IMG/VR virus record: IMGVR_UViG_3300022719_000175
Coordinates: 1-58,821 of that record
DNA: 58,821 nt
Reading direction: 5' to 3' (one strand)
Origin: a virus
Lineage: Duplodnaviria; Caudoviricetes
This document shows positions 3,433-57,736 of the stretch, one piece after another; the stretch's first letter is position 1, and every line of letters starts with the position of its first letter. The notes below the pieces were generated by a model that saw only the letters and a program-made list of their open reading frames with translations, made no database searches and had not been told where the DNA came from. Made by a program: the position numbers and the translations under genes.

Positions 3433-4056
3433 ATGATCCCCATCCTCCTCATCGCCCTCATCGCCCCGGCGGGCGGCGGCGAGCCCGAAATCAACGTCAT
3501 CGTCAACGAGACCGCCCGGTTCGACGCGGGCATCTGGTCGGCCGACGTGGCCGGGACCTCGCTCTCCGTCACCCTGTCGGCGACCATCCTCCCCTCGACC
3601 CTCGGGATCGTCTACCCTGCGATCCTCCCCGAGCCCGGAGTCGCGCTCGTCTCGTCGAGCACCTGGGCGTCGGGCGACGAGGTCTTCATCTCCGCGACCC
3701 TCTCCGGCTCGTGGGACGTCGGCGACCCGCTCTTCCGGCTCCTCGGCGTCTGCAACGCGGCCGAGCCCGTGACGTGGACCGCCGCGAGCGGCGGCTCGGC
3801 GACCTGGGAGTGGTCGGACGTTCAGCGCGGCGACGTGGACGGCAGCGGGACGGTGAACATCGCGGACGCCATCGCGCTACTGGCCGCCAACCTGGGCCCT
3901 TGCGTGGACGCGGCCGACGCAAACGATGATGGGGCGGTTGACATCGCTGATGCGGTGGTTATACTGGATGCGGTGTTCCAGGGCTGGGAGCTCCAGCCGT
4001 GCGGCGTGGACCTGACCCTGGACTTCCTGAACTGCGATGGCGGCGTGTGCCCGTGA
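3433..4056 (+). CDS. Exported protein with C-terminal dockerin-like (paired EF-hand) domain
   Basis: Hydrophobic N-terminus; RGDVDGSGTVNIADAI...CVDAADANDDGAVDIADAV. Confidence 0.8.
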   Translation: MIPILLIALIAPAGGGEPEINVIVNETARFDAGIWSADVAGTSLSVTLSATILPSTLGIVYPAILPEPGVALVSSSTWASGDEVFISATLSGSWDVGDPLFRLLGVCNAAEPVTWTAASGGSATWEWSDVQRGDVDGSGTVNIADAIALLAANLGPCVDAADANDDGAVDIADAVVILDAVFQGWELQPCGVDLTLDFLNCDGGVCP

Positions 4057-4079
4057 TCGCGCAAATGAAAGGTGGTCCG

Positions 4080-5207
4080 ATGCTTCGGATCCTGTGTTGT
4101 TTCCTAGCCGTGACGCCGGGACTGTTCGCCCAGAATGACCTGGCGGAAAAGTTCATCGAGGACAACCTCTCGACGGACCTCCATATCCTTCTACCGCTCG
4201 ACGAGACGACGGGCGATCCGCAGGACACGTCCGGCAACAACCTGGACGGCACCCTGGAGGGCGGCGCGACTCTCGGGGCTGACCCCGTGGTCGATGAGGT
4301 CCTCAACTCGTCCGCCGCGGCGGTACAGATCGACGAGGGCGACTTCATCGAGGTCGTCGACCCGACCCGGATCGGCTGCGGCGACTTCTCCATCGCCATG
4401 TGGGTCCAACTCGACATCGACCTGACGGACTCCGAGGGCTACAACCTGCCCGGGACCGACATCTGGTCGGCGGGACTGTTCCGCAAGGGCAACGGTATGG
4501 CGGGGACGATCCGCTACGACGTGTCCGAAGATGATTTCACCATCGCGATGACCCTGTTTCACCCGCCGTCCGGCGGCGGCCTGTGCGATGGGTCGTCCGG
4601 CTCCCTCGGCGAGGACGAGATTTTCGCCCGCGTCATCCTGCCGTCGTCTCAATTCGATCCGATGGAAGAGCATCTGTACGTCTTCACATACGACCAGTCG
4701 GAAGGAATGGCGTTCGCCTGGGTGGATTTCCAGGCATACGACGACGACATGGTGAACGACCACGGTTTCTTTACCCAAACGCCAAACGAATGGCGGTTCG
4801 GCACGGGCGACCCTGGTATGGTGAATTCTGAGGCCCAAGGGCAAATCGACCTCATCGCGGTTTGGACGCGGCCGCTCACGACAACGGAGATCCACGACCT
4901 CGCCGACATCGGGCACGAGGGCGTCGATTTCATCCGCGGCGACACGAACGCGGACGGCGTGCTGAACATCGCCGACGTGTCCAACATCGCCAACTACGTG
5001 ACCGCCGGGACGTTCTCGCCGGACTGCATCGAGGCGCTCGACGCGAACGACGACGGCCAAGTGGACATCGCGGATTCGTCCTACCTGTCGTCCTACCTCT
5101 TCGGGACCCCGCCGGGACCGGCGCCCGGAGCGCCGACGTCGTGCGGTCGCGAGGCCGGGATCGACCAGGACGACGACACGTGCCTGGCGGAAACGAACTG
5201 CAACTAG
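4080..5207 (+). CDS. Secreted LamG/concanavalin A-like domain protein with C-terminal dockerin-like domain
   Basis: Signal peptide (MLRILCCFLAVTPGLFAQ); LamG hallmarks (LDETTG..DTSGN, FSIAMWV, GQIDLIAVWTRPLT..EI); FIRGDTNADG..NIAD...CIEALDANDDGQVDIAD. Confidence 0.82.
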   Translation: MLRILCCFLAVTPGLFAQNDLAEKFIEDNLSTDLHILLPLDETTGDPQDTSGNNLDGTLEGGATLGADPVVDEVLNSSAAAVQIDEGDFIEVVDPTRIGCGDFSIAMWVQLDIDLTDSEGYNLPGTDIWSAGLFRKGNGMAGTIRYDVSEDDFTIAMTLFHPPSGGGLCDGSSGSLGEDEIFARVILPSSQFDPMEEHLYVFTYDQSEGMAFAWVDFQAYDDDMVNDHGFFTQTPNEWRFGTGDPGMVNSEAQGQIDLIAVWTRPLTTTEIHDLADIGHEGVDFIRGDTNADGVLNIADVSNIANYVTAGTFSPDCIEALDANDDGQVDIADSSYLSSYLFGTPPGPAPGAPTSCGREAGIDQDDDTCLAETNCN

Positions 5208-5217
5208 GAGAGAAGAA

Positions 5218-5985
5218 ATGGCTTTCGGAGCGACAGAGCGTGAGCACGGCAGGTTCGACCAAACGTACCTGTCTGAGAAGAACCACGGCACGAGCATCCA
5301 TCGCGACTACATCAGCCACTGCGAGCGCTGGAGTCACGCCTGCGAGATCGGTCGCAAGAACCGCGTGCTCGATCTCGGCTGCGGTCCCGAGTGGCCGCTG
5401 GGCAAGGCGCTCAAGAGGCGAGCAGGGGCAAACAACCGGGCGAAGCTGTACGTCGGCATCGACCTGAGTCCCGTTCACGTGCGGAACAAGCCGGTCACGG
5501 AACACGAGAGCCCCAGCGGCGACTTCATCCTGCGCGGCGATTTCAACCTGCTCGAGGACGAGATCCCGGCGGGTCCGTTCGACGTGGTGGCCTGCTTCGA
5601 GGTCCTCGAGCACATGGGTGAAGAGGACGGGCGCCGCTTGCTCGAAGTGGCTCGGGATCAGATCGCTGACGACGGCGTGTTCCTGCTCTCGACGCCGGTG
5701 AAGCAGGGGGATCACCAGGCCCGGAATCACATCAAGGAGTGGTACCGCGACGAGCTGCGCGAGGCGATCCTGGAGGCGGAGCTCGAGGTGGTCGAGGAGT
5801 TCGGCACCTACGGGGACCTGCGGGAGATCCGCAAGGCCCTCGTGGCGCGCGAAGAGACCGCGCTCGTCGAGGCCATGGACCGCATGACAGCGTTCCACTC
5901 GGCCGATTACGTGTCCGCCGCGTTCGGCTTCGTGGCGCCCGAGGCCTGCAAGAACATCATGTGGAAATTGCGCCGAGGTGGCTAA
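5218..5985 (+). CDS. Class I SAM-dependent methyltransferase (small-molecule/glycan type)
   Basis: Motif I VLDLGCG, YVGID, FDVVACFEVLEH and LLSTP; no DPPY or PC DNA-MTase motif. Confidence 0.85.
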   Translation: MAFGATEREHGRFDQTYLSEKNHGTSIHRDYISHCERWSHACEIGRKNRVLDLGCGPEWPLGKALKRRAGANNRAKLYVGIDLSPVHVRNKPVTEHESPSGDFILRGDFNLLEDEIPAGPFDVVACFEVLEHMGEEDGRRLLEVARDQIADDGVFLLSTPVKQGDHQARNHIKEWYRDELREAILEAELEVVEEFGTYGDLREIRKALVAREETALVEAMDRMTAFHSADYVSAAFGFVAPEACKNIMWKLRRGG

Positions 5986-35416: not shown

Positions 35417-35501
35417 TACTAGTATCTCGTCCAGCGCGTTTTCGCCGCCTAGGCTGTGCGGTTCTCGTCCTGCGCTGTACTATTAGGTGGAGGAGGAAGT
35501 G

Positions 35502-36161
35502 ATGACGAAGTTCGAACTGCTGCGCCTCGCCGAAGAGACCCGTGAGAAAGCGATCACTCGCAAACCTGAGTGGGAGCAGCATCTGCGCCGCTGCCGCTTC
35601 GAGGTGAGCGGCCGCATGACCAGCACGGCCGGAATGGCCGACCAGAGCGGGCGCATCAAACTCAGCGCGCCCATCCTCATGAACCCGGAGAACCCGCTGT
35701 CCGACGTCAAGAACACCATCCTCCACGAAATGGCTCACTGCGTGGACTTCTGGGTCTTCGGCGGCTGGAGTCACGGACGGACCTGGGTGATCACAGCGCA
35801 GAGCATCGGCTGCAACGCCAAGCGGTGTCACCGCATGAAGACCGTCAAGCGCCCGTCGGGGCGGATCCACGATATCCAATGCAACAAGTGCGGGTACATC
35901 GCGAAGGTCACGAAACTCATCCTTGGCCGCCTCAAGAGCGGCACTTACGAGTACCGCCACACAGGCTGCCGCGGCGGTCTCTTCGTGGCCGTTCAGCCCA
36001 CCGAAATCAAGCCGGCCGCGGAGAAGGCTGCGCGGCGCAGCAAGGACGTGTTCGTGCCTGCGCACGAAGGCCACGTCACCTGCACCGTCTGCAACAAGAC
36101 CATCAAGAAGGGATCCAAAGGTGACCACCTCAAGTCGAAAGGACACCAGCGAAACGTGTGA
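35502..36161 (+). CDS. SprT-like metalloprotease with C-terminal zinc fingers
   Basis: RMTSTAG, ILHEMAH and HGRTW motifs, CNKC, and CTVC..H..S..H. Confidence 0.85.
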   Translation: MTKFELLRLAEETREKAITRKPEWEQHLRRCRFEVSGRMTSTAGMADQSGRIKLSAPILMNPENPLSDVKNTILHEMAHCVDFWVFGGWSHGRTWVITAQSIGCNAKRCHRMKTVKRPSGRIHDIQCNKCGYIAKVTKLILGRLKSGTYEYRHTGCRGGLFVAVQPTEIKPAAEKAARRSKDVFVPAHEGHVTCTVCNKTIKKGSKGDHLKSKGHQRNV

Positions 36162-41347: not shown

Positions 41348-42528
41348 AGTGGTCCCCGGAGCAGGCCAAGGCCTTGGATAGCGTGAAGTCATGGTACGCC
41401 AACGAGCCCAATCGTCCGTTCATCCTGAACGGCTACGCCGGAACGGGCAAGACGACGCTCGCGCGGCACATCGCTGCCACAATCGGCGGCTTTGTGCCCT
41501 TCGCCACGTTTACCGGGAAGGCCGCTCATGTGCTCCGGCGCAAGGGCTGCGAGACCGCGACGACCATCCACCAACTGATCTACGCGCCCAAACACCAGAG
41601 CCGGGCACGGCTTCAGGCGCTCGAGGAGGACCTTCAGGCGGCCGAGGTTGCGGAGGAGCACGACCGCGCATCACAGATCATGTCCGCCATCCGGGCGGAG
41701 AAGAAGCGTCTGGAGCGTCCCTCGTTCCGGCTCCTCGAGGACACACCACTCGAGGAGGCCTCCGCCGTCATCATCGATGAGCACTCGATGGTCGACGAGA
41801 AAATCGGCGAGGACCTCGCCTCGTTCGGCGTGCCGACCATCGCCTTGGGCGATCCTGGGCAGTTGCCGCCCGTTGGCGGCCGCCCGTACTTCAACGCGGA
41901 GCCGGACGTGATGCTCGAGCAGATCCACCGGCAAGCAGCAGACAACCCCGTCATCCGACTGGCCACCATGGCGCGAATGGGAGAGCGGATCCCGTTCGGC
42001 GAATACGGCGCTTCTCAGGTCGTGCCGTGGGGGTCGGTCGGTACGGATCAAGTGCTCGAGCACGACCAAATCCTCGTGGGTCGCAACAAGACACGGGCTG
42101 CGTCCAACGAACGAGTGCGCGAGCTCCGCGGCTTCAAGGGAGCCACGCCGCAGGCCGGCGAGCGGATCGTATGCCTGCGGAACAACCACGAGAAGGGGAT
42201 CATGAACGGGTCGACGTGGGAAGTCGAAACGGCTACCGACTTCGATCTCGACACGATCGCTCTGACAATCTTCGACCCGGACGAGCCGGAGGACAGGCAT
42301 TGGGTCCAAGCGTTCGATCTCCCCTTCACGGGCGTGAGCGTACCGTTCTGGGAACGGCGCGCGGATGTGTTCGACTACGGCTATGCCCTCACCGTCCACA
42401 AATCCCAAGGCTCGGAATGGCCCAGCGTACTCGTGTTCGACGAGTCCGGTGCCTTCCGGCAAGACCGAAACAAGCATCTCTATACCGCGCTCACGCGAGC
42501 GTCTGAAAGGGTAACCCTTGTCATCTGA
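41344..42528 (+). CDS. RecD/Dda-like SF1B helicase
   Basis: GYAGTGKT, IIDEHSM, GDPGQLPPV, YALTVHKSQGSEW and YTALTRA motifs. Confidence 0.92.
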   Translation: MKWSPEQAKALDSVKSWYANEPNRPFILNGYAGTGKTTLARHIAATIGGFVPFATFTGKAAHVLRRKGCETATTIHQLIYAPKHQSRARLQALEEDLQAAEVAEEHDRASQIMSAIRAEKKRLERPSFRLLEDTPLEEASAVIIDEHSMVDEKIGEDLASFGVPTIALGDPGQLPPVGGRPYFNAEPDVMLEQIHRQAADNPVIRLATMARMGERIPFGEYGASQVVPWGSVGTDQVLEHDQILVGRNKTRAASNERVRELRGFKGATPQAGERIVCLRNNHEKGIMNGSTWEVETATDFDLDTIALTIFDPDEPEDRHWVQAFDLPFTGVSVPFWERRADVFDYGYALTVHKSQGSEWPSVLVFDESGAFRQDRNKHLYTALTRASERVTLVI

Positions 42529-42532
42529 ACGC

Positions 42533-44158
42533 ATGGGACAGTTTGCCCGCGCTATCTACAAGGCAAAATATGCGATGGACGGCGAGGAGTGGCCGGACAC
42601 CGCGCGTCGCGTGGGGACCGAGGTCTTGAGCTCCGTCGACGCCAGTCCTGAGCTCATCGACGCTACGGTCAAGGCCATCACGGCGCGCGAGTTTTTGCCG
42701 GGTGGCCGGTATCTCTTCGCGGCCGGGCGTTCGTATCACCAGACAAACAACTGTTTTCTCTTCCGCCCCGAAGATTCCCGCGAGGGTTGGGCGGAGTTCA
42801 ACCGCAAGGCCACCATGGCGCTTATGACGGGCGGCGGTATCGGTGGCTGGTATGGGGACATCCGTTCAAGCGGCAAGCCGATCAAAAAGACCGGCGGCAT
42901 TTCGTCGGGACCGCTCGCACTGATGGAGATGGTCAACGAGATCGGCCGCCATGTTATGCAGGGCGGCTCTCGTCGCTCCGCGATCTGGGCAGGCCTACCG
43001 TGGTACCACAATGACATCAACGATTTCCTCGTCATGAAAAACTGGGCTCCCGAGGTCCGCGCCATGAAGGAGCGGGACTTCAACTTCCCCGCCACTATGG
43101 ACATGACCAACATCTCGGTCACGCTCAACGACCAGTTCTTCGCGGCGATCCATGATCACAGCCACGGGATGCACAAGTTGGCGAAAGAGGTCTACTGGAC
43201 CACCGTCAAGCGGATGCTAAAGACCGGCGAGCCCGGTTTCTCCGTCGACACGGGCAACGACTGGCGCGAGAATCTACGCAACGCCTGCACCGAGATCACG
43301 TCGGAGGACGACTCGGACGTCTGCAACCTTGGGCACATCAACCTCGCTCGCATGCGCGATCTCGACCACTTCCGCGACACCGTCGCGCTCGCCACGTCGT
43401 TTTGCCTCGCCGGTACGGTCTACTCTGACGTTCCATTCCTCGAGGTCGAGGAAACTCGCGCCAAGAACCGTCGTCTCGGCGTCGGTCTCATGGGCGTCCA
43501 CGAGTGGCTTATGCAGCGGGGCAAACCGTACGGTGAGGACGAGGAGCTTGGGACTTGGCTGCAAGCCTACGCCGAAATTACTACTGACTTCGCCGCCGAC
43601 TTCGCCGTCCTCTGGGGACTAAGCGAGCCGGTGAAGACCCGAGCAATCGCGCCGACCGGAACGACCGGCATCGTCGCCGAGACCACCACCGGCCTCGAGC
43701 CCATGTTCTGCGCTGCGTACAAGCGGAGATACCTCGAGGAGGGCACGAAGTGGAAGTACCAATTCGTCGTCGACCCGACGGCGAGACGAGCGGTGGAGAA
43801 GTACAACGTGGACCCGGAGGATCTCGAGGACGCGTATTCGCTGGCCAACAACCCGGAGCGGCGCGTCCGCTTTCAGGCGTGGGTCCAAGAGTTCGTCGAC
43901 CACGGGATCTCGTCCACCATCAATCTGCCGGCATGGGGCAGCAAACACAACAACGAAGGGATCATCGACAATTTCGGCACCATGCTGCTGCGGTACTTGC
44001 CAGACCTGCGCGGCATCACGACCTATCCCGATGGGGCCCGCGGAGGCCAGCCACTCACTACGATCGCGTATGAGGAAGCCGTTCGCCACGAGGGAGACAT
44101 CTTCGAGGAGTCCAGCGACGTATGCGACATCACCAGGGGAAGCAGTTGCGGCGACTGA
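42533..44158 (+). CDS. nrdJ: Ribonucleotide reductase, class II (B12-dependent, minimal)
   Basis: LPGGRYL, NCF, GEPG, NACTEI, CNLG.INL, APTGT and C-terminal Cys pair; no beta-subunit gene. Confidence 0.88.
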   Translation: MGQFARAIYKAKYAMDGEEWPDTARRVGTEVLSSVDASPELIDATVKAITAREFLPGGRYLFAAGRSYHQTNNCFLFRPEDSREGWAEFNRKATMALMTGGGIGGWYGDIRSSGKPIKKTGGISSGPLALMEMVNEIGRHVMQGGSRRSAIWAGLPWYHNDINDFLVMKNWAPEVRAMKERDFNFPATMDMTNISVTLNDQFFAAIHDHSHGMHKLAKEVYWTTVKRMLKTGEPGFSVDTGNDWRENLRNACTEITSEDDSDVCNLGHINLARMRDLDHFRDTVALATSFCLAGTVYSDVPFLEVEETRAKNRRLGVGLMGVHEWLMQRGKPYGEDEELGTWLQAYAEITTDFAADFAVLWGLSEPVKTRAIAPTGTTGIVAETTTGLEPMFCAAYKRRYLEEGTKWKYQFVVDPTARRAVEKYNVDPEDLEDAYSLANNPERRVRFQAWVQEFVDHGISSTINLPAWGSKHNNEGIIDNFGTMLLRYLPDLRGITTYPDGARGGQPLTTIAYEEAVRHEGDIFEESSDVCDITRGSSCGD

Positions 44159-44459: not shown

Positions 44460-45101
44460 ATGAGCAGCGCACGGTTGATCTGGATGACGCCTGACGCAGA
44501 GCAGCAAATCGAATACTGCGCGCGGGTCTCGAGCCCGGAGAACCAGGAGCGGATGGAGAAAGGCGAGCTCACGCCCGGCCGGCTACTGCGCTACTGCGCT
44601 CGCAAGGGCCACTGGTCGATCTTCGAGATGGCGAACGCCTGCATCGCGGTCACGACGACGCGGGACATCTCCGCGCAGATCCTCCGGCATCGCTCGTTCT
44701 CGTTCCAAGAGTTCTCAACGCGGTACACCCAGGTCAGCAGGCGGTCCGTCGCCCCTGAGCTGCGGCCGCAGGACCCCAAGAACCGGCAGTCGTCGCTTGA
44801 CGCGCCGATCGACCTGAGTGGCGTGCAACGTGTTCTCGACCGGGCTCACGACGCGTACGACGACCTGATCCGCTGCGGCGTAGCTCGGGAATGCGCTCGC
44901 CGGGTTCTGCCCCTCTGCACTCCCACAAAGTTGTACATGAACGGTACAATCCGTTCATGGATCCACTACTTCAAGGCGAGATGCACCCCTGAGACGCAGA
45001 AGGAGCATAGAGAATTGGCCCTTCAAGCGCGAGCCCTGTTGGCCCGGAATTTGCAGGTGATAGCAGAAGCCTTCGACTGGAACGGAGACCCGAATGAGTA
45101 A
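44460..45101 (+). CDS. thyX: FAD-dependent thymidylate synthase
   Basis: HWSIFE, QILRHRSFSFQEFSTRY (RHRX7S), ECARRVLP and TQKEHR motifs. Confidence 0.95.
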   Translation: MSSARLIWMTPDAEQQIEYCARVSSPENQERMEKGELTPGRLLRYCARKGHWSIFEMANACIAVTTTRDISAQILRHRSFSFQEFSTRYTQVSRRSVAPELRPQDPKNRQSSLDAPIDLSGVQRVLDRAHDAYDDLIRCGVARECARRVLPLCTPTKLYMNGTIRSWIHYFKARCTPETQKEHRELALQARALLARNLQVIAEAFDWNGDPNE

Positions 45102-45274
45102 GTTTCTCGAGGAGAGCGTCGAGCAGGCGCGACAGCTGCTTCGATCCGCCGGCGGAGACCGGGACCTGCTCAATGCAGCGGTCCGGATTCACGCGGCGCG
45201 GATCATTGCGCAGCACCAGGTCGTCGAGCTCGAGATCGATGAAGACCTCGCCGCTCTTCTGGGAGAAGGACCTG

Positions 45275-46264
45275 ATGAGATTGATTGAGGCAAGAAATCC
45301 GCATCAAGCCCTGCCGAAGGCCTTGAAGATGCTCCAAGACGACGGGCATCTGCGTAAGAGCCGCGCGGGAGCGGTGATGACGGTGGATGGGCCCGTCACC
45401 ACGACCTACGAACGACCGTGGGAGATGGTGGTATTCCAGGCGCAACGGGACGCAAACCCATTCTTTCACCTCATGGAGGCCCTGTGGATGCTCGCCGGGC
45501 GGGATGATCTCGCCTTCGTGCGCCGGTTCAACCGCGGGATCGCGCGTTTCGCCGAAGACGAGGGCTACTTCCATGGGGCGTACGGCCGCCGCTGGCGGCA
45601 CCACTTCGGCGCGGATCAGCTCCCGTCCATCGTGCGGGCACTGCGCGAGCAGCCCAACTGCCGGCGGCAAATCCTGCAAATGTGGGACCCGCTCATCGAC
45701 CTGAACGCGAGCAAGCGGGACATCCCGTGCAACATCACGGTCCACTTCCAGGTTTCGTTCCGGAAGCGGCTGGACATGACGGTCTTTTGCCGCTCCAACG
45801 ACGTCGTGTGGGGCTGCTACGGATCCGACTGCGTGACGTTTGGAGTCCTGCAGCAGTTCGTGGCCGCGGCCGTGGGCGTCCCGCCCGGGCGGTACTTCCA
45901 GGTCAGCGACAACTTTCACGCCTACACGGACACGGCGGACTTCGCTCTCGCGGACCAGGCGGGCGAGATGTGCCCGTACGAGTGGGGCTCCGTTGTTCCC
46001 ACACGGCTTGTGGATCACGGGATGGACGCCGACGATTTCATCGCGGACGTCGAGAATTTTTGCAGCGGCGGGACCACGAAGTCGTGGTTTCTCCAGCGCG
46101 TCGCCGAGCCCATGGCCCGCGCCTACGACCGTTTTCGGGGTATGCGAAACCACCCGGAACGCTATGATCTAGCCCTGGAAGAGCTTTCCTACGGCGCATG
46201 TCACTCTGACTGGATCGTGGCCGCGAAAGAGTGGTTCGAAAGGAGGCAGCAGTGCCGGGCATGA
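45275..46264 (+). CDS. ThyA-family pyrimidine hydroxymethylase/methylase, predicted dCMP-specific
   Basis: RDANPFFHLMEALWMLAGR, GAYG.RWR, catalytic DIPCN, RSNDVVWGCYGSD and NFHAY motifs. Confidence 0.85.
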   Translation: MRLIEARNPHQALPKALKMLQDDGHLRKSRAGAVMTVDGPVTTTYERPWEMVVFQAQRDANPFFHLMEALWMLAGRDDLAFVRRFNRGIARFAEDEGYFHGAYGRRWRHHFGADQLPSIVRALREQPNCRRQILQMWDPLIDLNASKRDIPCNITVHFQVSFRKRLDMTVFCRSNDVVWGCYGSDCVTFGVLQQFVAAAVGVPPGRYFQVSDNFHAYTDTADFALADQAGEMCPYEWGSVVPTRLVDHGMDADDFIADVENFCSGGTTKSWFLQRVAEPMARAYDRFRGMRNHPERYDLALEELSYGACHSDWIVAAKEWFERRQQCRA

Positions 46265-46638
46265 AGTTCGACAAGAACAAAACGCGCCTCGAGCTGCTGC
46301 CGTTCGACGCGCTCGAGCAGTGTGCCGACGTGTTCGCCTTCGGCGCGGCCAAGTACGGGGAATGGAACTGGACGGGAATCGAGGAGGGCGTGCAGCGCTA
46401 CGTTGGCTCGCTGCTCCGTCATGTGTCTCGATTCCAGCAGGGGGAAGAGATTGATCCCGATTCCGGGCTGCACCACCTCGCTCACGCGGGGGCGTGCTGC
46501 CTCATCATCTTGCGCTTCCTCGCGGAGGAAGGGCGACTCCCAACTGAGAAGAAGGACCTCAGTGATGTTACAAATGAGTTTACCCCTGCCCGGGACGCCT
46601 ACGCCCGAGACGGAGAATACGATGAGAACGCCGCGTGA
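46261..46638 (+). CDS. dNTP diphosphohydrolase domain protein (DUF5664-like)
   Basis: KFDKNK.RLELLP, FGAAKYG..NW and DPDSGLHHLAHA motifs. Confidence 0.85.
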   Translation: MKFDKNKTRLELLPFDALEQCADVFAFGAAKYGEWNWTGIEEGVQRYVGSLLRHVSRFQQGEEIDPDSGLHHLAHAGACCLIILRFLAEEGRLPTEKKDLSDVTNEFTPARDAYARDGEYDENAA

Positions 46639-46936
46639 GCGCGCAGTCGCGCTCTACAACCAAGGCCTCAGCATCGTCGAGGTGGCGAAGGAGCTCGACC
46701 AACACCCGCAGCTTATCGGCAATCTCATCGTGAACACGCCCAAGCGGGCCGGCGCCGGTCGCCCGCGGCGCAAAATGCCAGGCGACCACGTCGCGAAGAA
46801 CATGCGCCTGCTCAACGAGCAGCACGGGTTCACTCGCGCGCAGATCGCTGAGATGTTCGGCTGCTCGATAACCACCGTGAACTACGCCATCCAGGCGAAT
46901 CGCGTGGCGAACGGCGAGACTCGGCGAGTCAAGTGA
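46622..46936 (+). CDS. Double-HTH DNA-binding protein
   Basis: GLSIVEVAKELD and GFTRAQIAEMFGCSITTV. Confidence 0.7.
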   Translation: MRTPRERAVALYNQGLSIVEVAKELDQHPQLIGNLIVNTPKRAGAGRPRRKMPGDHVAKNMRLLNEQHGFTRAQIAEMFGCSITTVNYAIQANRVANGETRRVK

Positions 46937-48834
46937 GAGTGCAACTCCCTCTCTTCGAACCAACCACGAGTTGGACTCCCCCCAAGGTAGCAGACCTTCC
47001 CTCCTGGGCCGATGCGAAGCGGGTCGCGATCGATATCGAGACCTGTGACCCGGATCTCCGGACGCTCGGCCCGGGAGAGCACCGCGACGGGCGAATCGTC
47101 GGCGTCTCGTTCGCCATCGAAGACAGCCCGCACGCCTACTACCTCCCGATTGGACACGCGCTTGAAGGCAACTTGGAGGCAGACCTCGTTTTGCGTTACT
47201 TGCGAGACCAGGCTGACGCCTTCCAAGGCACCCTTGTCGGACAGAACCTCACATACGACCTTGGGTACCTCCGTCGTGCGGGTGTGCGTTTCACGCCTGA
47301 GAGGTTTCGCGACGTACGACTCGCCGCCGCCGTCCTCAACGAGAACCAACAGTCGTTCACCTTGGACGCAATCGCGTCGGCTATGGGCTTGCCCGGCAAG
47401 GACGAAGCCGGACTCGAGGCCGCCGCGGAGGCTTACGGCGTCGACGCCAAGGGAGGCATGTGGAAGCTGCCGGCCCGGCACGTCGCGCCGTACGCGATTC
47501 GCGACGTCACTCTCCCGCTCGAGTTGCTGCGGCGACAGGAGCGGGTCATCGACGACGAAGACCTGTGGGAGATCTACGACCTAGAGTCCGACGTCCTGCC
47601 GGCGATTGTGCACATCCGCGAGAAGGGCGTGCGGGTCGATCTCAGCCGACTCGAGCTCGTCGAGGAGAAGGCGCGCGCCATCCAACTCGAGCAGCTCGGC
47701 GAGGTTTTCCGCCGGACCGGCGTGCTCGTCCACCCCAACGACATCAACAAGAAGGACGAGGTCGCGAAGATTTTCGAGGCGATCGGCGTCACGCTGCCCA
47801 CCACTCCGACCGGACAGCCGAAGATTGACGCTGCGTTCCTCGAGTCGCTCGACCACCCCGCGTCCAAGGCGTTTCTTGCCGCGAAGCGGGCCAACAAGAT
47901 CGAGACGACCTTCGCGGCCTCCGTCCGCCGCAGCCTCGTCGGCGATCGCATCCACTGCACGTACAACCAGATGCGCCGTGAAGATGACGCGGGCCTCGTG
48001 GGCACGGTGTCCGGTCGCCTGAGCGCGACGAAGCCGAACCTTCAGCAGCAGCCCGCCCGCGACCCCGTGTGGGGAAAGCTCTGGCGCTCGATTTACGTTC
48101 CGGAGGACGGCGAGCAGTGGGCGTGCATGGACTTTTCGTCGCAGGAGCCGCGCCTTGCCGTGCACTACGCCGCCGAAGCCGGCTGCAAGGGAGCAAGCGA
48201 GATCGTCCAGGCGTACGCCGAGGAGGCGCGGCTCGACTTCCACGGGAAGATGGCCGCGCTGGCCGGCTGCAGCCGCAAGCACGCAAAGACTATCTTCCTC
48301 GGTCTCTGCTACGGTATGGGCCAAGCGAAGCTCTGCGACATGCTCGAGCTTCCGACGGAAACGGTGGAGTGGCGCGGGAGCATGCGGCGGTTCGCCGGAG
48401 CAGAGGGCAAGGAGCTCATGCAGCAGTTCAACGCGATGGTGCCGTTCGTCCGCGAGCTCGCCGACCTCGCCAAGAATGCGGCCGGCCGCCGTGGTTGGGT
48501 TCAGACCTACGCCGGGCGTCGCTGCCGCTTTCCGTACGACAAGGCCAAGCGCGAGTTCGACTGGACACACAAGGCGCTGAACCGGATTATCCAGGGGTCG
48601 GCGGCGGACCAGATCAAGCTCGCCATGCGCGATCTGGATCGCGCTGGGATCGTGCCCAATCTGCAGGTCCACGACGAGCTTGACTGCTCTGTCTCGAGCC
48701 CCGCCCAGGCGCGCGAGATCGCCGAGATCATGACGAATGCGGCTCCTATGCGCGTTCCGTCGGTGGTGGACATCGAGCTGGGGCCAAACTGGGGCGAGAT
48801 CGAGGGTATACCCGACCAGAGCGAGACAGTATAA
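46933..48834 (+). CDS. polA: Family A DNA polymerase with 3'-5' exonuclease
   Basis: AIDIET exonuclease motif; SGRLS..PNLQQ; motif A DFSSQEPR; motif B RKHAKTIFLGLCYG; motif C QVHDEL. Confidence 0.95.
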   Translation: MRVQLPLFEPTTSWTPPKVADLPSWADAKRVAIDIETCDPDLRTLGPGEHRDGRIVGVSFAIEDSPHAYYLPIGHALEGNLEADLVLRYLRDQADAFQGTLVGQNLTYDLGYLRRAGVRFTPERFRDVRLAAAVLNENQQSFTLDAIASAMGLPGKDEAGLEAAAEAYGVDAKGGMWKLPARHVAPYAIRDVTLPLELLRRQERVIDDEDLWEIYDLESDVLPAIVHIREKGVRVDLSRLELVEEKARAIQLEQLGEVFRRTGVLVHPNDINKKDEVAKIFEAIGVTLPTTPTGQPKIDAAFLESLDHPASKAFLAAKRANKIETTFAASVRRSLVGDRIHCTYNQMRREDDAGLVGTVSGRLSATKPNLQQQPARDPVWGKLWRSIYVPEDGEQWACMDFSSQEPRLAVHYAAEAGCKGASEIVQAYAEEARLDFHGKMAALAGCSRKHAKTIFLGLCYGMGQAKLCDMLELPTETVEWRGSMRRFAGAEGKELMQQFNAMVPFVRELADLAKNAAGRRGWVQTYAGRRCRFPYDKAKREFDWTHKALNRIIQGSAADQIKLAMRDLDRAGIVPNLQVHDELDCSVSSPAQAREIAEIMTNAAPMRVPSVVDIELGPNWGEIEGIPDQSETV

Positions 48835-49091
48835 TGGGCGACATGATTAACCTAGACGATATCATCGATCTGGTTTACGACGGTGACGGCGAGTCGGTGC
48901 AGGTCACCGTTGCGCCCTGCGAGCGCTGCGACTGCTACCACGCGGTCGTCGACGATGACCCCGTTTGCCGCGTCTGCCGGTGTCTTGAGAGCCACGGCGA
49001 GCTGACGGCCTACTTTCTCGAACGGCTCGAGCTCTATCCTCGCATGCGATCGGACGGAACCTATGAACGCGAAAGCCGCGAAGCTCACTAG
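48834..49091 (+). CDS. Small Cys-rich protein
   Basis: CERC...CRVC; translational coupling with polA. Confidence 0.5.
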   Translation: MGDMINLDDIIDLVYDGDGESVQVTVAPCERCDCYHAVVDDDPVCRVCRCLESHGELTAYFLERLELYPRMRSDGTYERESREAH

Positions 49092-49290
49092 ACGCTACGC
49101 CGCGCTCTACCCGCCTCGCCTTCGCCGCAGCGTGGTGAAGTCCATCAAGAAGCGATGGGGCGAAGCCTCTCCTGCCCTGCGCAGCGAGATGAGGCAGGAC
49201 ATGGAGAAGGCGCTCGCGCGGCCTGACGCCGCCGGGGACGCCATCCTCCGCAAGCTCCGCGACATGGTTGCGGACGATAAAATCGAATGA
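49063..49290 (+). CDS. Hypothetical basic protein
   Basis: Overlapping operon packing. Confidence 0.45.
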   Translation: MNAKAAKLTRRYAALYPPRLRRSVVKSIKKRWGEASPALRSEMRQDMEKALARPDAAGDAILRKLRDMVADDKIE

Positions 49291-49469
49291 CCCAGCACCC
49301 GGCCTCCTTCTGGGAGTGCGACGCCCCCGGCTGTGACGGCGTGGACACGTCCGGACAGGACGACGAGCCGCGCGGCTGGGGGTTCTTGCAGTTCGATGGC
49401 CGAGACTTCGACCTTTGCGACTCGTGCATCAACAAGATTCGGAGGATCCTGAATGATCTTGACGGCTGA
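49287..49469 (+). CDS. Small Zn-binding protein
   Basis: CDAPGC...DLCDSC. Confidence 0.55.
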   Translation: MTQHPASFWECDAPGCDGVDTSGQDDEPRGWGFLQFDGRDFDLCDSCINKIRRILNDLDG

Positions 49470-49947
49470 CACCATCCGCGAGCTTGGCCTCGTCGAGCCT
49501 TGCCGTGAGCGTTACGTTGTGCATGGCAAGTCGGCGGGCCTGTCGTACGCGAGCTATGACTTGACTCTCTCTCAACCCCACGGAGTCCAAATTGCGCCAG
49601 GCACGGCGCAGCTCGTCACCGTCGAGCAGCTCATCAGGCTGCCCAACGACGTGGCCGGCCGCATCATGGACAAGTCGTCCTGGGCACGCCGCGGCATACT
49701 GGTCGGAAACACGTTCGCCGACCCTGGGTGGGAGGGCTACCTCTCCGTGCACCTGTTCAATCACGGCCGCGAGCACATCACCATTCCTGACGGTATGCCC
49801 ATCGCGCAGATCGTGTTCGAGCGCGTGGAAGGCGTCGCGGAGCCGTACTCCGGCAAGTATCAGAACCAGGAACAGAAGCCGACAGGAGCCCGATATGAGC
49901 GAACAGGGGATGAGGAAGAAGGTAGTACAGGCGCTCAAACCTCTTGA
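49453..49947 (+). CDS. dcd: dCTP deaminase/dUTPase superfamily protein
   Basis: ASYDL, KSSWARRG, DPGWEG, IAQIVF and YSGKYQNQ motifs. Confidence 0.88.
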   Translation: MILTADTIRELGLVEPCRERYVVHGKSAGLSYASYDLTLSQPHGVQIAPGTAQLVTVEQLIRLPNDVAGRIMDKSSWARRGILVGNTFADPGWEGYLSVHLFNHGREHITIPDGMPIAQIVFERVEGVAEPYSGKYQNQEQKPTGARYERTGDEEEGSTGAQTS

Positions 49948-50299
49948 CGCCATCTCCGTTGAAAACTCCTGTGGACCTGGAACTCCCGACGTCAATTACG
50001 TGGACGGCTGGCTCGAGCTCAAGTGGGCTCGAACGTGGCCGAAGAAGCCGGAGACCCCGCTTCGCCTTGAGCACTTCACACGGCAGCAGCGGCTCTGGCT
50101 CATCCGCCGGTGGAAAGCCGGAGGAAGGGCGTTCGTTCTCTTGAAGGTTGGAGTAGAATGGTTGTTGTTCGATGCACCAACTGCGGCGGACAAGCTCGGC
50201 CGCTCGACTCGAGCGGAACTTTATGAAGTGGCGACGCAGGTGTGGACCAAACGCTTGAGCGCAACCAAACTGATTGAGGCGGTGACCATTGTCCCCTGA
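49895..50299 (+). CDS. PD-(D/E)xK nuclease (VRR-NUC/Holliday junction resolvase-like)
   Basis: VEN...GTPDV...WLELK and Q..W...R...GG motifs. Confidence 0.8.
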   Translation: MSEQGMRKKVVQALKPLDAISVENSCGPGTPDVNYVDGWLELKWARTWPKKPETPLRLEHFTRQQRLWLIRRWKAGGRAFVLLKVGVEWLLFDAPTAADKLGRSTRAELYEVATQVWTKRLSATKLIEAVTIVP

Positions 50300-52595
50300 T
50301 ACTTTCCTCGAGCGACTGCGGCCCGGAGGCCCGTGGGTGCTGGTGGCGATCAACCCAGAAACCGAGGGGCAGCTCGTCACGGAAACGCTCTCGTCGCGCG
50401 AGTCTGTGCAGGCGTTTGTCGAGAAATACGTGGGTTGGAATCTGTACTACTCGCTCAATCCGACGCTCCGCAGCATCAACAAAAAGGCGCGGCGCGAGGA
50501 TATCGCCGCCGTCGAGTACTTTCACGTGGATCTCGACCCGCGAGCCGGCGAGGATCTCGAGAGCGAGCAAGCCCGGATCGAGACGCTCATCAACGAGCTG
50601 CCGACAGGAATCCCCACGCCGACCGGCATCATCTTCTCCGGCGGCGGCTACAACCTGCTGTGGAAGCTCGAACAGGCGATCCCCGTGGACGGAAACCTCG
50701 ACGCCGCGGAGGACGCGAAGCTATACAACCTCCGCCTCGAGCGCGTGCTCGGTGCCGACAACTGCCACAATGTCGACCGGATCCTCCGGCTGCCGAGCAC
50801 CACGAATTGGCCCAACGCGCGGAAGAAGAAGCGCGGCCGCGAGCCGGCCGAGGCGCGCGTCGTGCAGTGGAACCCCGAGCTCATCTATCCCGTCGATTCC
50901 TTCCAGAAAGCCCACCCGGTCGCCACGAACGCGGTGCCCAAGCCGAAGATTGAGATCTCGGGTAACATCCGGCGTCTGAGTGAGGACGAGCTCGAGGACC
51001 TGCCGATCGCCGAGTGGTGCAAGCTCGTCATCCTCCACGGCAAGGACCCCATCGATGAGTACAAGTACCCGTCCCGGTCCGAGGCGCTCTTCGCCGTCGT
51101 GTGCGAAATGGTCCGCAAGGAAATCTCCGACGAGGTCATCTACTCGGTCATCACCGACCCCGAGCTCAAGATCTCGGAGTCTGTCCTCGAAAAGGGCTCG
51201 AGCACGGAGCGCTACGCGCTCAACCAGATCGAACGGGCTCGGACGATGGCCGTGGACCCGCACCTACTCGACCTCAACGACGAGTTCGCGGTCATCGAAA
51301 ACCTCGGCGGGCGTGTCCGCATCGTCCGGTTCGTGGAGGACCCCGTCACGGGCCACATGAAGCCGCAGCGGTTTACCTTCGAGGACTTCAAGAAGATGAT
51401 GATGAACCAGCGGATCGAGATCCGGAACGGCGACCGGACGCGAACGGTCGGCCTGGGCGACTGGTGGCTCACTCACCCCGAGCGGAGGCAGTACCAGCAA
51501 ATGGTCTTCTCGCCCGCGCGGGATCCGAAGAACTCGCTCAACCTCTGGCGCGGCTTCGCGTGCGAGGCCCTGCCGCCGGATCCGGGCGAGACTGGTAAGC
51601 ATCAGCGCTACCTCGACCACCTGCTTGAGAATGTCTGCGGCGGCAACAAGACCCACTTCGGGTACCTCGTCAAGTGGATGGCTCGCGCCGTTCAGAATCC
51701 CGACCTGCCCGGGTACTCCGCGGTCGTACTCCGCGGCGGACAAGGAACTGGAAAAGGCATCGCCGCCCGGGAATTCGGCTCCCTCTTCGGGCCCCACTTC
51801 AAGCACGTGTCCGATGCGTCGCGCGTTACCGGCAAGCACAATCTTCACCTGCAGGACTGCGTCGTCCTGTTCGCCGACGAGGCGTTCTTCGCCGGAGACA
51901 AGCAGCACGCCGCGGCGCTAAAGCGGATCGTGACCGAGTCCACCTTGGACATCGAGGCGAAATACCACGACGCGGAGATCACGCCGAACCACCTACATAT
52001 CATCATGGCCTCCAACGAGGATTGGATCGTGCCGGCGGATGCGGACGACCGTCGCTTCTTCGTGCTCGAGGTCGCCGACGGCAACAAGCAAGACCGCATG
52101 TACTTCCGCCGGATCATCGACGACCTGAACAACGGCGGCCGGGAGCACCTGCTGTTCTACCTGCAGTCCCTCGATCTGACCGGCTTCGAGGTGGATTCGA
52201 TCCCGCAGACCAGTGCGCTCCGTGAGCAGAAGATGCGGTCGCTCGACCCGCTCCACGCCTGGTGGTATGAGAAGCTCGAGCGGGGCTATGTGTTCGACGA
52301 TGACGACGACGGCTGGCCTGAGAACGTCCCCGTGGACACACTCAAGTCGGACTTCCACGAGCACGTCCGTGCACAAAGTAAGCGCACCGGCACGACGACT
52401 TTCGCGATGAACAGGTTCCTCGAACGCGTGCTCGCGCGAAAAGTCAGCACCGTCCAGCTCGCTGCGACAACCGTACGGGTCAACGGCGAGCCGGTTCCGA
52501 AGAAGAAGCCGTACGCTTACGAGCTCCCGAGCCTAAGCGAATGCCGCGCGGCTTGGGACAAACTGCTCGGGATGGAGTCGACGTGGTCCGTCTAA
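50289..52595 (+). CDS. Primase-helicase (RepB-like primase + SF3/DUF5906 helicase)
   Basis: HVDLD, SGGGY and RILRLP primase motifs; Walker A GGQGTGKG, FADE, MASN and DDRRF. Confidence 0.9.
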   Translation: MSPDTFLERLRPGGPWVLVAINPETEGQLVTETLSSRESVQAFVEKYVGWNLYYSLNPTLRSINKKARREDIAAVEYFHVDLDPRAGEDLESEQARIETLINELPTGIPTPTGIIFSGGGYNLLWKLEQAIPVDGNLDAAEDAKLYNLRLERVLGADNCHNVDRILRLPSTTNWPNARKKKRGREPAEARVVQWNPELIYPVDSFQKAHPVATNAVPKPKIEISGNIRRLSEDELEDLPIAEWCKLVILHGKDPIDEYKYPSRSEALFAVVCEMVRKEISDEVIYSVITDPELKISESVLEKGSSTERYALNQIERARTMAVDPHLLDLNDEFAVIENLGGRVRIVRFVEDPVTGHMKPQRFTFEDFKKMMMNQRIEIRNGDRTRTVGLGDWWLTHPERRQYQQMVFSPARDPKNSLNLWRGFACEALPPDPGETGKHQRYLDHLLENVCGGNKTHFGYLVKWMARAVQNPDLPGYSAVVLRGGQGTGKGIAAREFGSLFGPHFKHVSDASRVTGKHNLHLQDCVVLFADEAFFAGDKQHAAALKRIVTESTLDIEAKYHDAEITPNHLHIIMASNEDWIVPADADDRRFFVLEVADGNKQDRMYFRRIIDDLNNGGREHLLFYLQSLDLTGFEVDSIPQTSALREQKMRSLDPLHAWWYEKLERGYVFDDDDDGWPENVPVDTLKSDFHEHVRAQSKRTGTTTFAMNRFLERVLARKVSTVQLAATTVRVNGEPVPKKKPYAYELPSLSECRAAWDKLLGMESTWSV

Positions 52596-53064: not shown

Positions 53065-53339
53065 GAACCACCATCCTCGCGCTCGTCCTCGCGTTCGTCG
53101 CCGGCTGCGCCTTCTTCGAGCGCCCGGAACGGCAAGTCGTTTTGCCCGGCCCAGACGGAGTCCTCGGCACCGCCGATGACATCGTCACGACCGAGAAGGA
53201 CGACTCCGACGCAGAGAAGTCCGCGGACGTCGTCAAGACGATCCTTACCCTCCTCGGATTCGGCGCCGCTGGCGCGGCCGTCGTGACCGGCACGGAAGTC
53301 GCCTCGAACATCGCGACCAACCGGAAGAAGAGGCAATGA
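53061..53339 (+). CDS. Lipoprotein with C-terminal TM segment (unimolecular spanin-like topology)
   Basis: Lipobox FVAGC; GPDGVLGTADDI; hydrophobic TILTLLGFGAAGAAVV; basic tail. Confidence 0.6.
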   Translation: MRTTILALVLAFVAGCAFFERPERQVVLPGPDGVLGTADDIVTTEKDDSDAEKSADVVKTILTLLGFGAAGAAVVTGTEVASNIATNRKKRQ

Positions 53340-54055
53340 GCCGCCTGACAAGGGCGCTCGTCATCGGCTCGTTCCTCTTCATCATCGGTGGGACCTTCGC
53401 CGCGGGCTACAACTGGGTGTCCGAGATCGTCACCGGCTACGAGGCCCGCCTCGCGAGTCTCGAGCATCCGGAGTCCTTCCTCTGGGAGAACGTCGACCAG
53501 GCGTTCCGTCTCGAGAACGGCCTCTGGTGCGGCACCGGCTGGGTCGCTCGATGCCAGAAGGTCGGCGCGGGCTACCGTATCCTCATGGTCACAGCCCGGC
53601 ACGTCGCGGAGGTGGGCCCGGACGTCCCACAGCACGTCCTCGACCAGCGGCAGCATCCCTGGATCGCGACCTCTCGTGACGAACGGTTGACCGGGGGCAC
53701 AGTGCTTGCGCTCCATCCGCAACGCGACGTGGCCGTCCTGGATTTCTTCTCGACGGAGCCAGTCCGGGTCCTCCCGTTCGCCGGCTACCGTCCTCTGTAC
53801 GGGGAGCTCGTTGCCCACTCGGGATACCCGTCGTGCGATGCGAACCTCCGGACGTCCCAGGGACTCCAGTGCCACGACGGCGTGGCCACGTTCCAGGCAT
53901 CGCCCGGCTGCTCCGGCGGGCCGGTGTTCCGCGACGACGGCACCGTGATCGGCATTCTCGTCTCCGGGCTCGGGAACGGCTTCGACACGCTCACGTTCAC
54001 CGGGATGTACGTCCCCGTGAGTGTCTTTGAGGAGTGGCTCCTCGCTCACCTTTGA
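53336..54055 (+). CDS. Membrane-anchored trypsin-like serine protease
   Basis: Catalytic triad TARHV / DVAVL / PGCSGGPV; N-terminal Gly/Ala-rich TM segment. Confidence 0.88.
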   Translation: MSRLTRALVIGSFLFIIGGTFAAGYNWVSEIVTGYEARLASLEHPESFLWENVDQAFRLENGLWCGTGWVARCQKVGAGYRILMVTARHVAEVGPDVPQHVLDQRQHPWIATSRDERLTGGTVLALHPQRDVAVLDFFSTEPVRVLPFAGYRPLYGELVAHSGYPSCDANLRTSQGLQCHDGVATFQASPGCSGGPVFRDDGTVIGILVSGLGNGFDTLTFTGMYVPVSVFEEWLLAHL

Positions 54056-57339: not shown

Positions 57340-57483
57340 ATGAGGGTCGCCAAGAGTTTCTCGCTCAGCGTCGAAACAGCGGCCGAGCTCGTCAGGCGAG
57401 CCAAGGCCGAAGGCGTTCCGGTCTCGCACCTGCTTGAGCGCATTCTCAAGGAAAGGTTCAAAGATGTCCGACGCAATGACTGA
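57340..57483 (+). CDS. Ribbon-helix-helix (CopG-like) DNA-binding protein
   Basis: MRVAKSFSLSVETAAELVRRAKAEGVPVSHLLERIL; translated by hand, not in the ORF track. Confidence 0.6.
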   Translation: MRVAKSFSLSVETAAELVRRAKAEGVPVSHLLERILKERFKDVRRND

Positions 57484-57736
57484 GGAGTACCGCCGCCAGA
57501 AGAACGTGGTGTACAAGCCGCCGCACTACCGCAAGCACCCGAGCGGTGTCGAGTGCATCGAAATCTCGCAGCACTTCAGCTTCAATCTGGGCAACGCGCT
57601 CAAGTACATCTGGCGAGCCGACCACAAACACGGCGACGGCGGTCTCGAGGACCTTCGCAAGGCTGAATTCTACATCAAGCAGGAAATCCACAAGCGACAG
57701 GGCGGACAAGGCGCCCACAACCGGGACGGAGCATAG
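57464..57736 (+). CDS. DUF3310 family protein
   Basis: V..PPHY....GVECIEI....FNLGNALKYIWRA..K...EDLRKA..Y pattern. Confidence 0.88.
   Translation: MSDAMTEEYRRQKNVVYKPPHYRKHPSGVECIEISQHFSFNLGNALKYIWRADHKHGDGGLEDLRKAEFYIKQEIHKRQGGQGAHNRDGA

Follow-up and report, generated by a model that had tools for sequence, protein, structure and literature searches.

The window analyzed here, the 58,821-nucleotide stretch IMGVR_UViG_3300022719_000175 of a tailed virus (Duplodnaviria; Caudoviricetes), encodes both a flavin-dependent thymidylate synthase, ThyX, and a 329-residue protein of the ThyA fold, and it raises the question of which nucleotide the second enzyme acts on. In the initial annotation, the ThyA homolog was proposed to make 5-hydroxymethyl-deoxycytidine monophosphate (5hmdCMP) or the corresponding 5-methyl product (5mdCMP), while ThyX would supply normal thymidine monophosphate (dTMP). 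Coordinates and family matches agree that both genes are present with one small open reading frame (ORF) between them, as described there. Based on gene content, residue correspondences, a clade of homologs with the same Asp, and a contrast in gene neighbors, we consider it probable, with some reserve, that the enzyme makes 5hmdCMP and that the phage DNA carries modified cytosine.

The ThyA homolog matched PF00303 with 71 bits (71.5 bits in the genome search; cut-off, 24.3) and phrog_5131 with an E value of 6.5e-100 over 326 residues. Its conserved start is the Met at 45275, and the listed ORF begins at 45173. In a MAFFT alignment with Pseudomonas phage M6 gp58, T4 gp42, Xp12 gp59, and Escherichia coli ThyA, the final Asp of its motif RSNDVVWGCYGSD (D185) fell in the column of E. 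coli N177, T4 gp42 D179, and an Asp of Xp12. HMMER alignments to MilA and three thymidylate synthases gave the same placement (MilA D186), with a one-residue insertion in the window protein. The register of the alignment can be trusted, since the T4 residues in it came out as C148, S169, R123, H216, and Y218, which is the numbering in the available excerpt of the MilA structure paper (PMC5175136). Both methods thus put an Asp at the specificity position, as the initial annotation had expected. M6 gp58, which reads RSNDLIWGAYGAN, has Asn in the N177 column within WGAYGAN, so that the motif given there for YuA/M6-type enzymes was correct. The phrog_5131 match and the D185 alignment also bear out the idea of a YuA/M6-type scaffold switched to Asp.

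Published residue rules were then compared with this map. According to the available excerpt of PMC13326640, replacement of N177 by Asp selects dCMP, an acidic residue at the L143 position goes with hydroxymethyl instead of methyl products, and D169N marks the flavin-dependent 5-hydroxy-dCMP synthases, being reported for every tested one. The excerpt of PMC5175136 links Ser and Arg at the thymidylate synthase positions S167 and R126 to deoxyribose, and the Ala and Lys of MilA to ribose. In addition, the accessible text of the MetaGPA study (PMC8670742) reports that Asp177 is enriched in thymidylate synthase homologs of metagenomic contigs selected for modified cytosine. At the positions covered by these rules, the window enzyme has D185, D149, D176 (Asp kept), S174, and R130, the last two corresponding to S167 and R126 and being of the deoxyribose type. 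The phosphate-binding and catalytic set C152, R30, R130, R131, and R173 is kept, and equivalents of E58, Y94, R21, R126/R127, R166, H207, and Y209 are all retained. This residue pattern is that of T4 gp42, most likely that of a dCMP 5-hydroxymethylase, and D185, D149, and D176 together also match MilA. Of the two products originally proposed, the prediction of cytosine as the substrate stands on D185, and the marker residues favor 5hmdCMP over 5mdCMP, and likewise over 5-hydroxy-dCMP.

The protein scored far below all NCBIfam equivalog cut-offs for true thymidylate synthase (best, TIGR03283 with 78.9 bits against a cut-off of 174.55 and TIGR03284 with 43.8 against 108.35). A canonical dTMP-forming ThyA was rejected, as the enzyme has Asp at both the 177 and the 143 positions instead of Asn and a hydrophobic residue.

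Among the 120 best homologs in a collection of 5.8 billion proteins, the specificity position holds Asp in 22 and Asn in 98. The 22 Asp-type homologs are monophyletic (support, 0.965), and every one of them has Ser instead of Ala directly before the Asp. Three residues farther on, most also carry Thr in place of His, and at residue 31 (residue 43 of P0001), beside the first phosphate-binding Arg, Asn is replaced by Ala in 18 of the 22. The nearest homologs are only 50 to 51% identical to the window enzyme; the best cultured-phage match is Bordetella phage CN1 (46.8%), and the enzyme of Rhizobium phage RHph_I65 is of the Asn type. As judged from these homologs, Asp185 is neither accidental nor an artifact of assembly, because it is invariant in the 22-member clade together with the neighboring Ser. 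The window gene was also found with 0 differences in contigs of two metagenome runs from one study, but the record may itself derive from these runs.

The same data bear on the possibility that dUMP is still the substrate, of a hydroxymethylase or a synthase, despite the Asp, with cytosine left unmodified. The phrog_5131 family is annotated as dUMP hydroxymethylases, and the Asp185 codon, GAC at nucleotides 45827 to 45829, is one base away from the Asn codon AAC. However, the Asp is invariant in a supported clade with covarying neighbor residues, the two assemblies (with the reservation made above) agree on its codon, and dTMP synthesis is already covered by the separate ThyX. Use of dUMP is therefore improbable, and the gene neighbors described below point in the same direction.

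Asp-type enzymes were also found outside this set of homologs. Among the 150 proteins listed from a profile search of 1.84 billion cluster representatives, 124 were of the Asn type and 9 of the genuine Asp type, 3 were apparently interrupted by inteins, and 14 did not fit the motif pattern. The GSD..VT signature is carried by five of the nine Asp-type representatives. P0260, P0268, P0277, and P0346 have the Asp on other sequence backgrounds (GADAVH, GADCVH, GSDAVH, and GADVVD), and three of them keep the Asn-type His, which suggests Asn-to-Asp switches separate from the GSD..VT clade. P0259, P0303, and P0316 (546 to 635 residues) matched the profile in two stretches, have WGCL..D.. at the specificity motif, and look like carriers of inteins in the active-site loop. 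In IMG/VR, an exact DNA pattern for NDxxWGCYGSD matched one other contig, and the looser WGxYGSD matched six stretches, three of which encode a relative of the enzyme. The IMG/VR scans gave at least 61 and at least 80 loci. Among 241 loci from metagenome and genome scans, at least 230 are of the Asn type and at least 5 of the Asp type, and 6 were not classified by the pattern.

To which lineage the enzyme belongs is indicated by its fold and sequence. An AlphaFold (AF2) model computed from the Asp-type alignment reached a pLDDT of 91.2 and a pTM of 0.91, and in Foldseek the matches with MilA and with many thymidylate synthases had a probability of 1.00. MilA chains made up the seven best PDB matches of the model, with 324 to 339 aligned columns, compared to approximately 230 to 260 for canonical synthases. 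According to the model, the C-terminal helical domain is therefore a feature of the MilA/M6 lineage. In the MAFFT alignment, the enzyme is 46% identical to M6 gp58 over the full length, 29% identical to Xp12 gp59, and 20% identical to T4 gp42; its best PHROG is 5131, and its closest cultured relatives are M6-type enzymes annotated as dUMP hydroxymethylases. Thus, while the predicted function is a step like that of T4 gp42, the descent, as far as these comparisons go, is from the M6/MilA lineage and not from the gp42 lineage.

MilA is the best solved match both by sequence (E value, 1.4e-20) and by fold (E value, 2.4e-17). This could speak for a MilA-like CMP (ribonucleotide) hydroxymethylase with a role other than DNA modification. 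But the MilA ribose residues A176 and K133 are Ser174 and Arg130 here, as in deoxyribose-specific enzymes, and the gene lies within a DNA replication module; we give such a role little credence. Still less likely is that the enzyme works like RB69 gp48 or DLP3 gp80, which are flavin-dependent 5-hydroxy-dCMP synthases. The window enzyme resembles them in the Asp at the N177 position and in having an acidic residue at that of L143 (excerpt of PMC13326640), and a related flavin monooxygenase structure, 9iqc, was among the fold matches at rank 48, but the diagnostic D169N is absent (the window enzyme has D176), and no arabinosyl- or other glycosyltransferase was detected in the ORF scans.

A third cytosine-directed activity, that of a dCMP methyltransferase, would give a genome with 5-methylcytosine, as in Xanthomonas phage Xp12. 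An Asp at the N177 position fits any dCMP user, Xp12 gp59 also has it, and Xp12 and M6 are placed in the same virus family. Moreover, N177D turns a canonical synthase into a dCMP methylase (accessible text of PMC8670742). Nevertheless, the L143 position of the window enzyme holds Asp, as in T4 gp42, M6 gp58, and MilA (excerpt of PMC13326640), whereas Xp12 has Asn and E. coli has Leu. Hardly any of the 120 homologs deviates from this Asp, and their family includes the M6-type enzymes annotated as dUMP hydroxymethylases; both sequence and fold are closest to MilA, which is a hydroxymethylase. Furthermore, the protein ends in a helical domain instead of the short tail of E. coli ThyA and Xp12 gp59; in ThyA-type enzymes, the short C-terminal tail has a role in hydride transfer. 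Taken together, methylation of dCMP is an unlikely activity, and hydroxymethylation of dCMP continues to be the reading we favor.

Gene neighbors were compared after removal of loci with identical enzyme sequences, which left 205 of 247. In phage M6, gp55 corresponds to PF18723 (5-hydroxymethyldeoxyuridine [5-hmdU] DNA kinase, helical domain; M6 locus L003, 12261-13232), and the kinase proper is gp54. Of the 125 Asn-type loci with more than 4 kb of upstream sequence, 124 have a gp55-like gene. In contrast, it was found in neither of two Asp-type loci (L145 and L250), and it is absent from the complete window genome (tblastn, E <= 0.01). The chance of this split is approximately 1e-5 if the three Asp-type genomes are independent, a figure that overstates the case because they are relatives. 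The initial annotation had likewise recognized no 5-hydroxymethyluracil kinase. Since the Asn-type relatives almost always have one, its lack is evidence rather than a gap, and it argues against dUMP as the substrate. The gp55-like gene is also far commoner in Asn-type loci than the kinase (39 loci), the amino acid:DNA transferase (34 loci), or the HD gene (tblastn, loci L005 to L251).

Downstream of the enzyme, an HD (YfbR-like) gene resembling M6 gp59 lies within 2.5 kb in 81 of 145 Asn-type loci, and a DUF5664 gene lies in this interval in none of the 145. At the Asp-type locus L145, DUF5664 comes after the HD gene, and the window has DUF5664 only. Asp-type contigs behind members of the protein search (e.g., P0006, P0030, and P0058) were not among the loci compared. 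The relative at L250 (5102-6313) is AT rich and encodes a 403-residue Asp-type protein with the motif WGAYGTD, directly followed by the gene for the family A DNA polymerase PolA.

The genes around the enzyme could supply the remaining steps. Its score against TIGR02170 and its RHR motif, which reads RHRSFSFQEFSTR at residue 76, mark ThyX as canonical and support the proposal that it is the source of normal dTMP. The 64-codon ORF between thyX and the ThyA homolog had no Pfam, PHROG, or NCBIfam match.

The DUF5664 protein had no PDB sequence match at E <= 1 and no close relative in IMG/VR. As described in the available excerpt of PMC12884076, the standalone DUF5664 protein of Arthrobacter phage Wayne, the only one assayed in this form, converts deoxynucleoside triphosphates (dNTPs) to monophosphates and acts on dATP, dUTP, and dGTP. 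By analogy, the assignment of the window protein as a pyrophosphatase is well founded, while a dCTPase activity would be a guess. In cytosine-modified contigs, thymidylate synthase domains co-occur with the NTP pyrophosphohydrolase domain PF01503 (MetaGPA, accessible text of PMC8670742); the pairing with DUF5664 follows the same logic with a different family. The expected DUF5664-like pyrophosphatase is thus present, as indicated by PF18909, but it adjoins the ThyA homolog and not, as had been stated, the Dcd gene. The Pfam name of PF18909 also suggested a Z-genome (2-aminoadenine), a reading that was rejected, as there was no adenylosuccinate synthetase-like (PurZ-like) protein among the scanned ORFs.

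The proposed dCTP deaminase (Dcd) is doubtful in this role. The protein scored below the equivalog cut-off for dCTP deaminase (TIGR02274, 85.1 versus 92.8 bits), and in DPGWEGYLSVHLFN the column of the catalytic residue, E. coli E138, is occupied by His, whose codon (CAC) differs at two bases from one for Glu. Among its 120 closest homologs, 118 have Glu, 1 has His, and 1 has Ser in this column. All 11 Dcd-like genes in Asn-type loci have Glu there, and this column holds His or Tyr in two true dUTPases of those loci. The best PDB matches, 8y1w and 9ln0 (dCTP deaminase according to the depositors), have Met in the Glu column. The Ser and Arg of SSxAR are kept, SSWARRG and ADPGW aligning with SSLARLG and IDPGW of E. 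coli, and T4 gp56, used as a reference for this gene, gave only one weak NCBIfam match. Judging from these residues, the protein is probably a nondeaminating hydrolase (dUTPase or dCTPase). It also has Asp in the xPGW motif, where most homologs have Glu, and a 15-residue acidic tail ending in GSTG that is missing in the 25 homologs whose ends were examined.

Contrary to the statement that no deoxynucleoside monophosphate (dNMP) kinase is recognizable, a candidate had been missed, namely, a 100-residue DUF3310 protein encoded near the right end of the window. DUF3310 is presumably the T7 gp1.7 nucleotide kinase family, and we take T7 gp1.7 to be a kinase. M6 gp61 is a weak DUF3310 match. In phage RHph_I65 (L253, 6785-7180), an annotated DUF3310 protein is encoded between the Asn-type enzyme and PolA, which may mean that such proteins tend to accompany enzymes of this family.

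In the favored reading, the ThyA homolog would take dCMP and methylenetetrahydrofolate and, via Cys152, form 5hmdCMP, which would be phosphorylated and then incorporated into the phage DNA, where it would replace cytosine partly or completely. ThyX would make ordinary dTMP. The DUF5664 protein encoded next to the enzyme would probably act as a dNTP pyrophosphatase and the Dcd-like protein, which has no catalytic Glu, probably as a hydrolase and not as a deaminase; one or both may turn dCTP (or dUTP) into the monophosphate, which is the job of gp56 in T4.

Pfam and PHROG scans of the larger ORFs detected no glycosyltransferase, in line with what was noted originally, and no DNA methyltransferase, TET/JBP protein, or carbamoyltransferase; several ORFs, including those at 52.5 to 57 kb, had no match at all, so that absence is not proven. 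A generic class I S-adenosylmethionine-dependent methyltransferase is encoded at 5218-5985, just before the terminase genes (Methyltransf_23, E value 5e-13; phrog_4752, "tRNA methyltransferase"), and is not a recognizable DNA methyltransferase. It is conceivable, although we are inclined to doubt it, that the phage has a complete pre-replicative pathway to 5-hydroxymethylcytosine (5hmC) made of non-T-even parts, that is, an M6/MilA-lineage hydroxymethylase changed from dUMP to dCMP use, DUF5664, a Glu-less Dcd descendant in the role of gp56, and, as the kinase, the DUF3310 protein. Given that no glycosyltransferase was seen, the virion DNA would then contain bare 5hmC or 5hmC decorated by the product of an unannotated ORF.

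Several points weigh against 5hmdCMP as the product and modified cytosine in the phage DNA. The residue rules derive from other lineages (T4, E. coli, MilA, and RB69). Usable context came from three Asp-type genomes (the window, L145, and L250), which are related, so the neighbor contrasts are not independent events. Of these, L250 has neither DUF5664 nor an HD gene, and L145 is without ThyX, ribonucleotide reductase, and a Dcd-like gene within 10 kb on either side, so that conservation within the Asp-type set does not extend to these three genes. In addition, the match of the kinase candidate is limited to a 60-residue domain, and the scans of the larger ORFs revealed neither a glycosyltransferase nor another 5hmC-decorating enzyme.

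Table 1. Positions in the window of the ThyA-fold enzyme, its key motifs, and associated genes
Feature	Position	Strand	Evidence or remarks
Ribonucleotide reductase (upstream neighbor; position of M6 gp46)	42518..44158	+	PF02867 E 1.1e-53; M6 synteny
ThyX, flavin-dependent thymidylate synthase	44460..45101	+	Pfam Thy1 E 7.6e-45; TIGR02170 139.9 bits (cut-off 87.9); RHR motif
64-codon ORF between thyX and the ThyA homolog; mechanical ORF only	45094..45288	+	GC by codon position 0.80/0.35/0.66
ThyA-fold enzyme, M6/MilA-like lineage, Asp type; predicted dCMP 5-hydroxymethylase, 329 aa	45275..46264	+	PF00303, phrog_5131, residue map, AF2 model
DIPCN motif: D149 = E. coli L143; C152 = catalytic Cys146 position; N153 = H147	45719..45733	+	
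Motif RSNDVVWGCYGSD, residues 173-185: R173, S174, D176, D185 = E. coli R166, S167, D169, N177	45791..45829	+	
Standalone DUF5664 protein; predicted dNTP pyrophosphohydrolase	46231..46638	+	PF18909 101.2 bits (cut-off 27), E 3.2e-29; phrog_801
Family A DNA polymerase (PolA)	46933..48834	+	PF00476 4.8e-45
Dcd/dUTPase-superfamily protein, His at the catalytic-Glu column (DPGWEGYLSVHLFN); predicted nondeaminating dNTP pyrophosphatase	49453..49947	+	PF22769 E 9.2e-18; PF00692; alignments
DUF3310 protein (T7 gp1.7 nucleotide kinase family, presumably), 100 residues; candidate kinase for modified dNMP	57434..57736	+	PF11753 43.5 bits (cut-off 24); phrog_236 "nucleotide kinase" 1.6e-25

The IMG/VR record is a whole virus genome of 58,821 bases with direct terminal repeats (measured length, 127 bases) and a CheckV completeness of 100%, and the GC content across it is 0.60 to 0.68. 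Packaging, head, and tail genes occupy the left half (small and large terminase, portal, Mu F-like protein, scaffold, major head protein, tail tube, and tape measure). The right half is the replication module, in which an SNF2 helicase, Pam3 gp33- and gp34-like proteins, a Dda-like helicase, and the ribonucleotide reductase are followed by ThyX, the ThyA homolog, DUF5664, a helix-turn-helix protein, PolA, and three small ORFs. Next come the Dcd family protein, a phrog_2165-matching protein, and a primase (50289-52595). The order of the replication module of Pseudomonas phage M6 matches that of the window gene for gene. In the searched collection, coverage of the region by any phage record stays below 80%, with nucleotide identities of 60 to 80%. 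Two of the small ORFs between PolA and the Dcd-like gene (48834-49091 and 49287-49469) are rich in paired cysteines (CxxC-type spacing) and have no family match. An RNA ligase-like protein is encoded near the left end (1289-2020; phrog_14301, E value 9.9e-59; Pfam RLIG1, E value 2.3e-08). Also outside the nucleotide metabolism block are genes for a protein with dockerin and lectin-like domains (3999-5207), an SprT-like metalloprotease (35487-36161), and a trypsin-like protease (53336-54055).

Pre-replicative cytosine hydroxymethylation is textbook knowledge for T-even phages. The accessible text of PMC8670742 documents that the Asn-to-Asp rule, together with its connection to modified cytosine in phages from metagenomes, has already been published. 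In our literature searches, we found no description of an Asp-type M6-lineage enzyme or of its pairing with ThyX or DUF5664, and the supplements of PMC13326640 and PMC8670742 may list such sequences. What the present analysis adds is a natural matched pair, with one enzyme family and one conserved replication module in an Asn and an Asp type. In Asn-type phages, the enzyme is accompanied by a 5-hmdU DNA kinase and frequently by an HD hydrolase, while the kinase is dropped in those of the Asp type, and DUF5664 is the partner in two of the three examined. This pair would be a clean system for studying the shift from thymine to cytosine modification and the changes that it demands of the helper enzymes. 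A specific candidate for the conversion of a deaminase into a hydrolase is the Dcd-like protein, in which His replaces the catalytic Glu. If the DNA is indeed modified, resistance to many restriction enzymes would be expected, as would effects on the sequencing and cloning of this phage group.

Among known systems, Arthrobacter phage Wayne resembles the window in having a standalone DUF5664 protein in a phage with altered nucleotide metabolism, but according to the excerpt of PMC12884076 its enzyme serves the 2-aminoadenine pathway, whereas the scanned window ORFs include no PurZ-like gene. The window enzyme shares the Asp at the N177 position with gp59 of Xp12, a siphovirus placed in the family of M6. 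However, Xp12 gp59, which is annotated as thymidylate synthase, is a canonical short ThyA-like protein without the insertion and with Asn at the L143 position. Xp12 is a 5-methylcytosine phage. MilA of mildiomycin biosynthesis (PDB 5b6d, 5jnh, and 5jp9) aligns over nearly the whole length and has Ser-Asp at the specificity position, but it differs in its ribose-type Ala176 and Lys133 and belongs to bacterial secondary metabolism.

With T4 gp42, the enzyme has in common the predicted chemistry, the Cys nucleophile, Asp at the N177, L143, and D169 positions, Ser at the S167 position, and the His and Tyr sugar contacts. In contrast to gp42, however, it belongs to another sublineage and has a helical extension of approximately 100 residues, and no homologs of T4 gp56, gp1, or glucosyltransferase were recognized in the window. 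The closest likeness is to M6 gp58 and the YuA type, as shown by the identity over the full length, the one-residue insertion before the N177 position, the DxPCN and RSND motifs, the C-terminal helical domain, and the syntenic place. Around the specificity residue, the window enzyme has Asp, Ser, and Thr where M6 gp58 has Asn, Ala, and His, and unlike M6, the window is without the 5-hmdU DNA kinase, amino acid:DNA transferase, radical S-adenosylmethionine, and pyridoxal phosphate (PLP) genes. ThyX sits at the site of the M6 cluster for thymidine hypermodification, DUF5664 at that of the HD hydrolase, and the Dcd-like gene at that of the dCMP deaminase.

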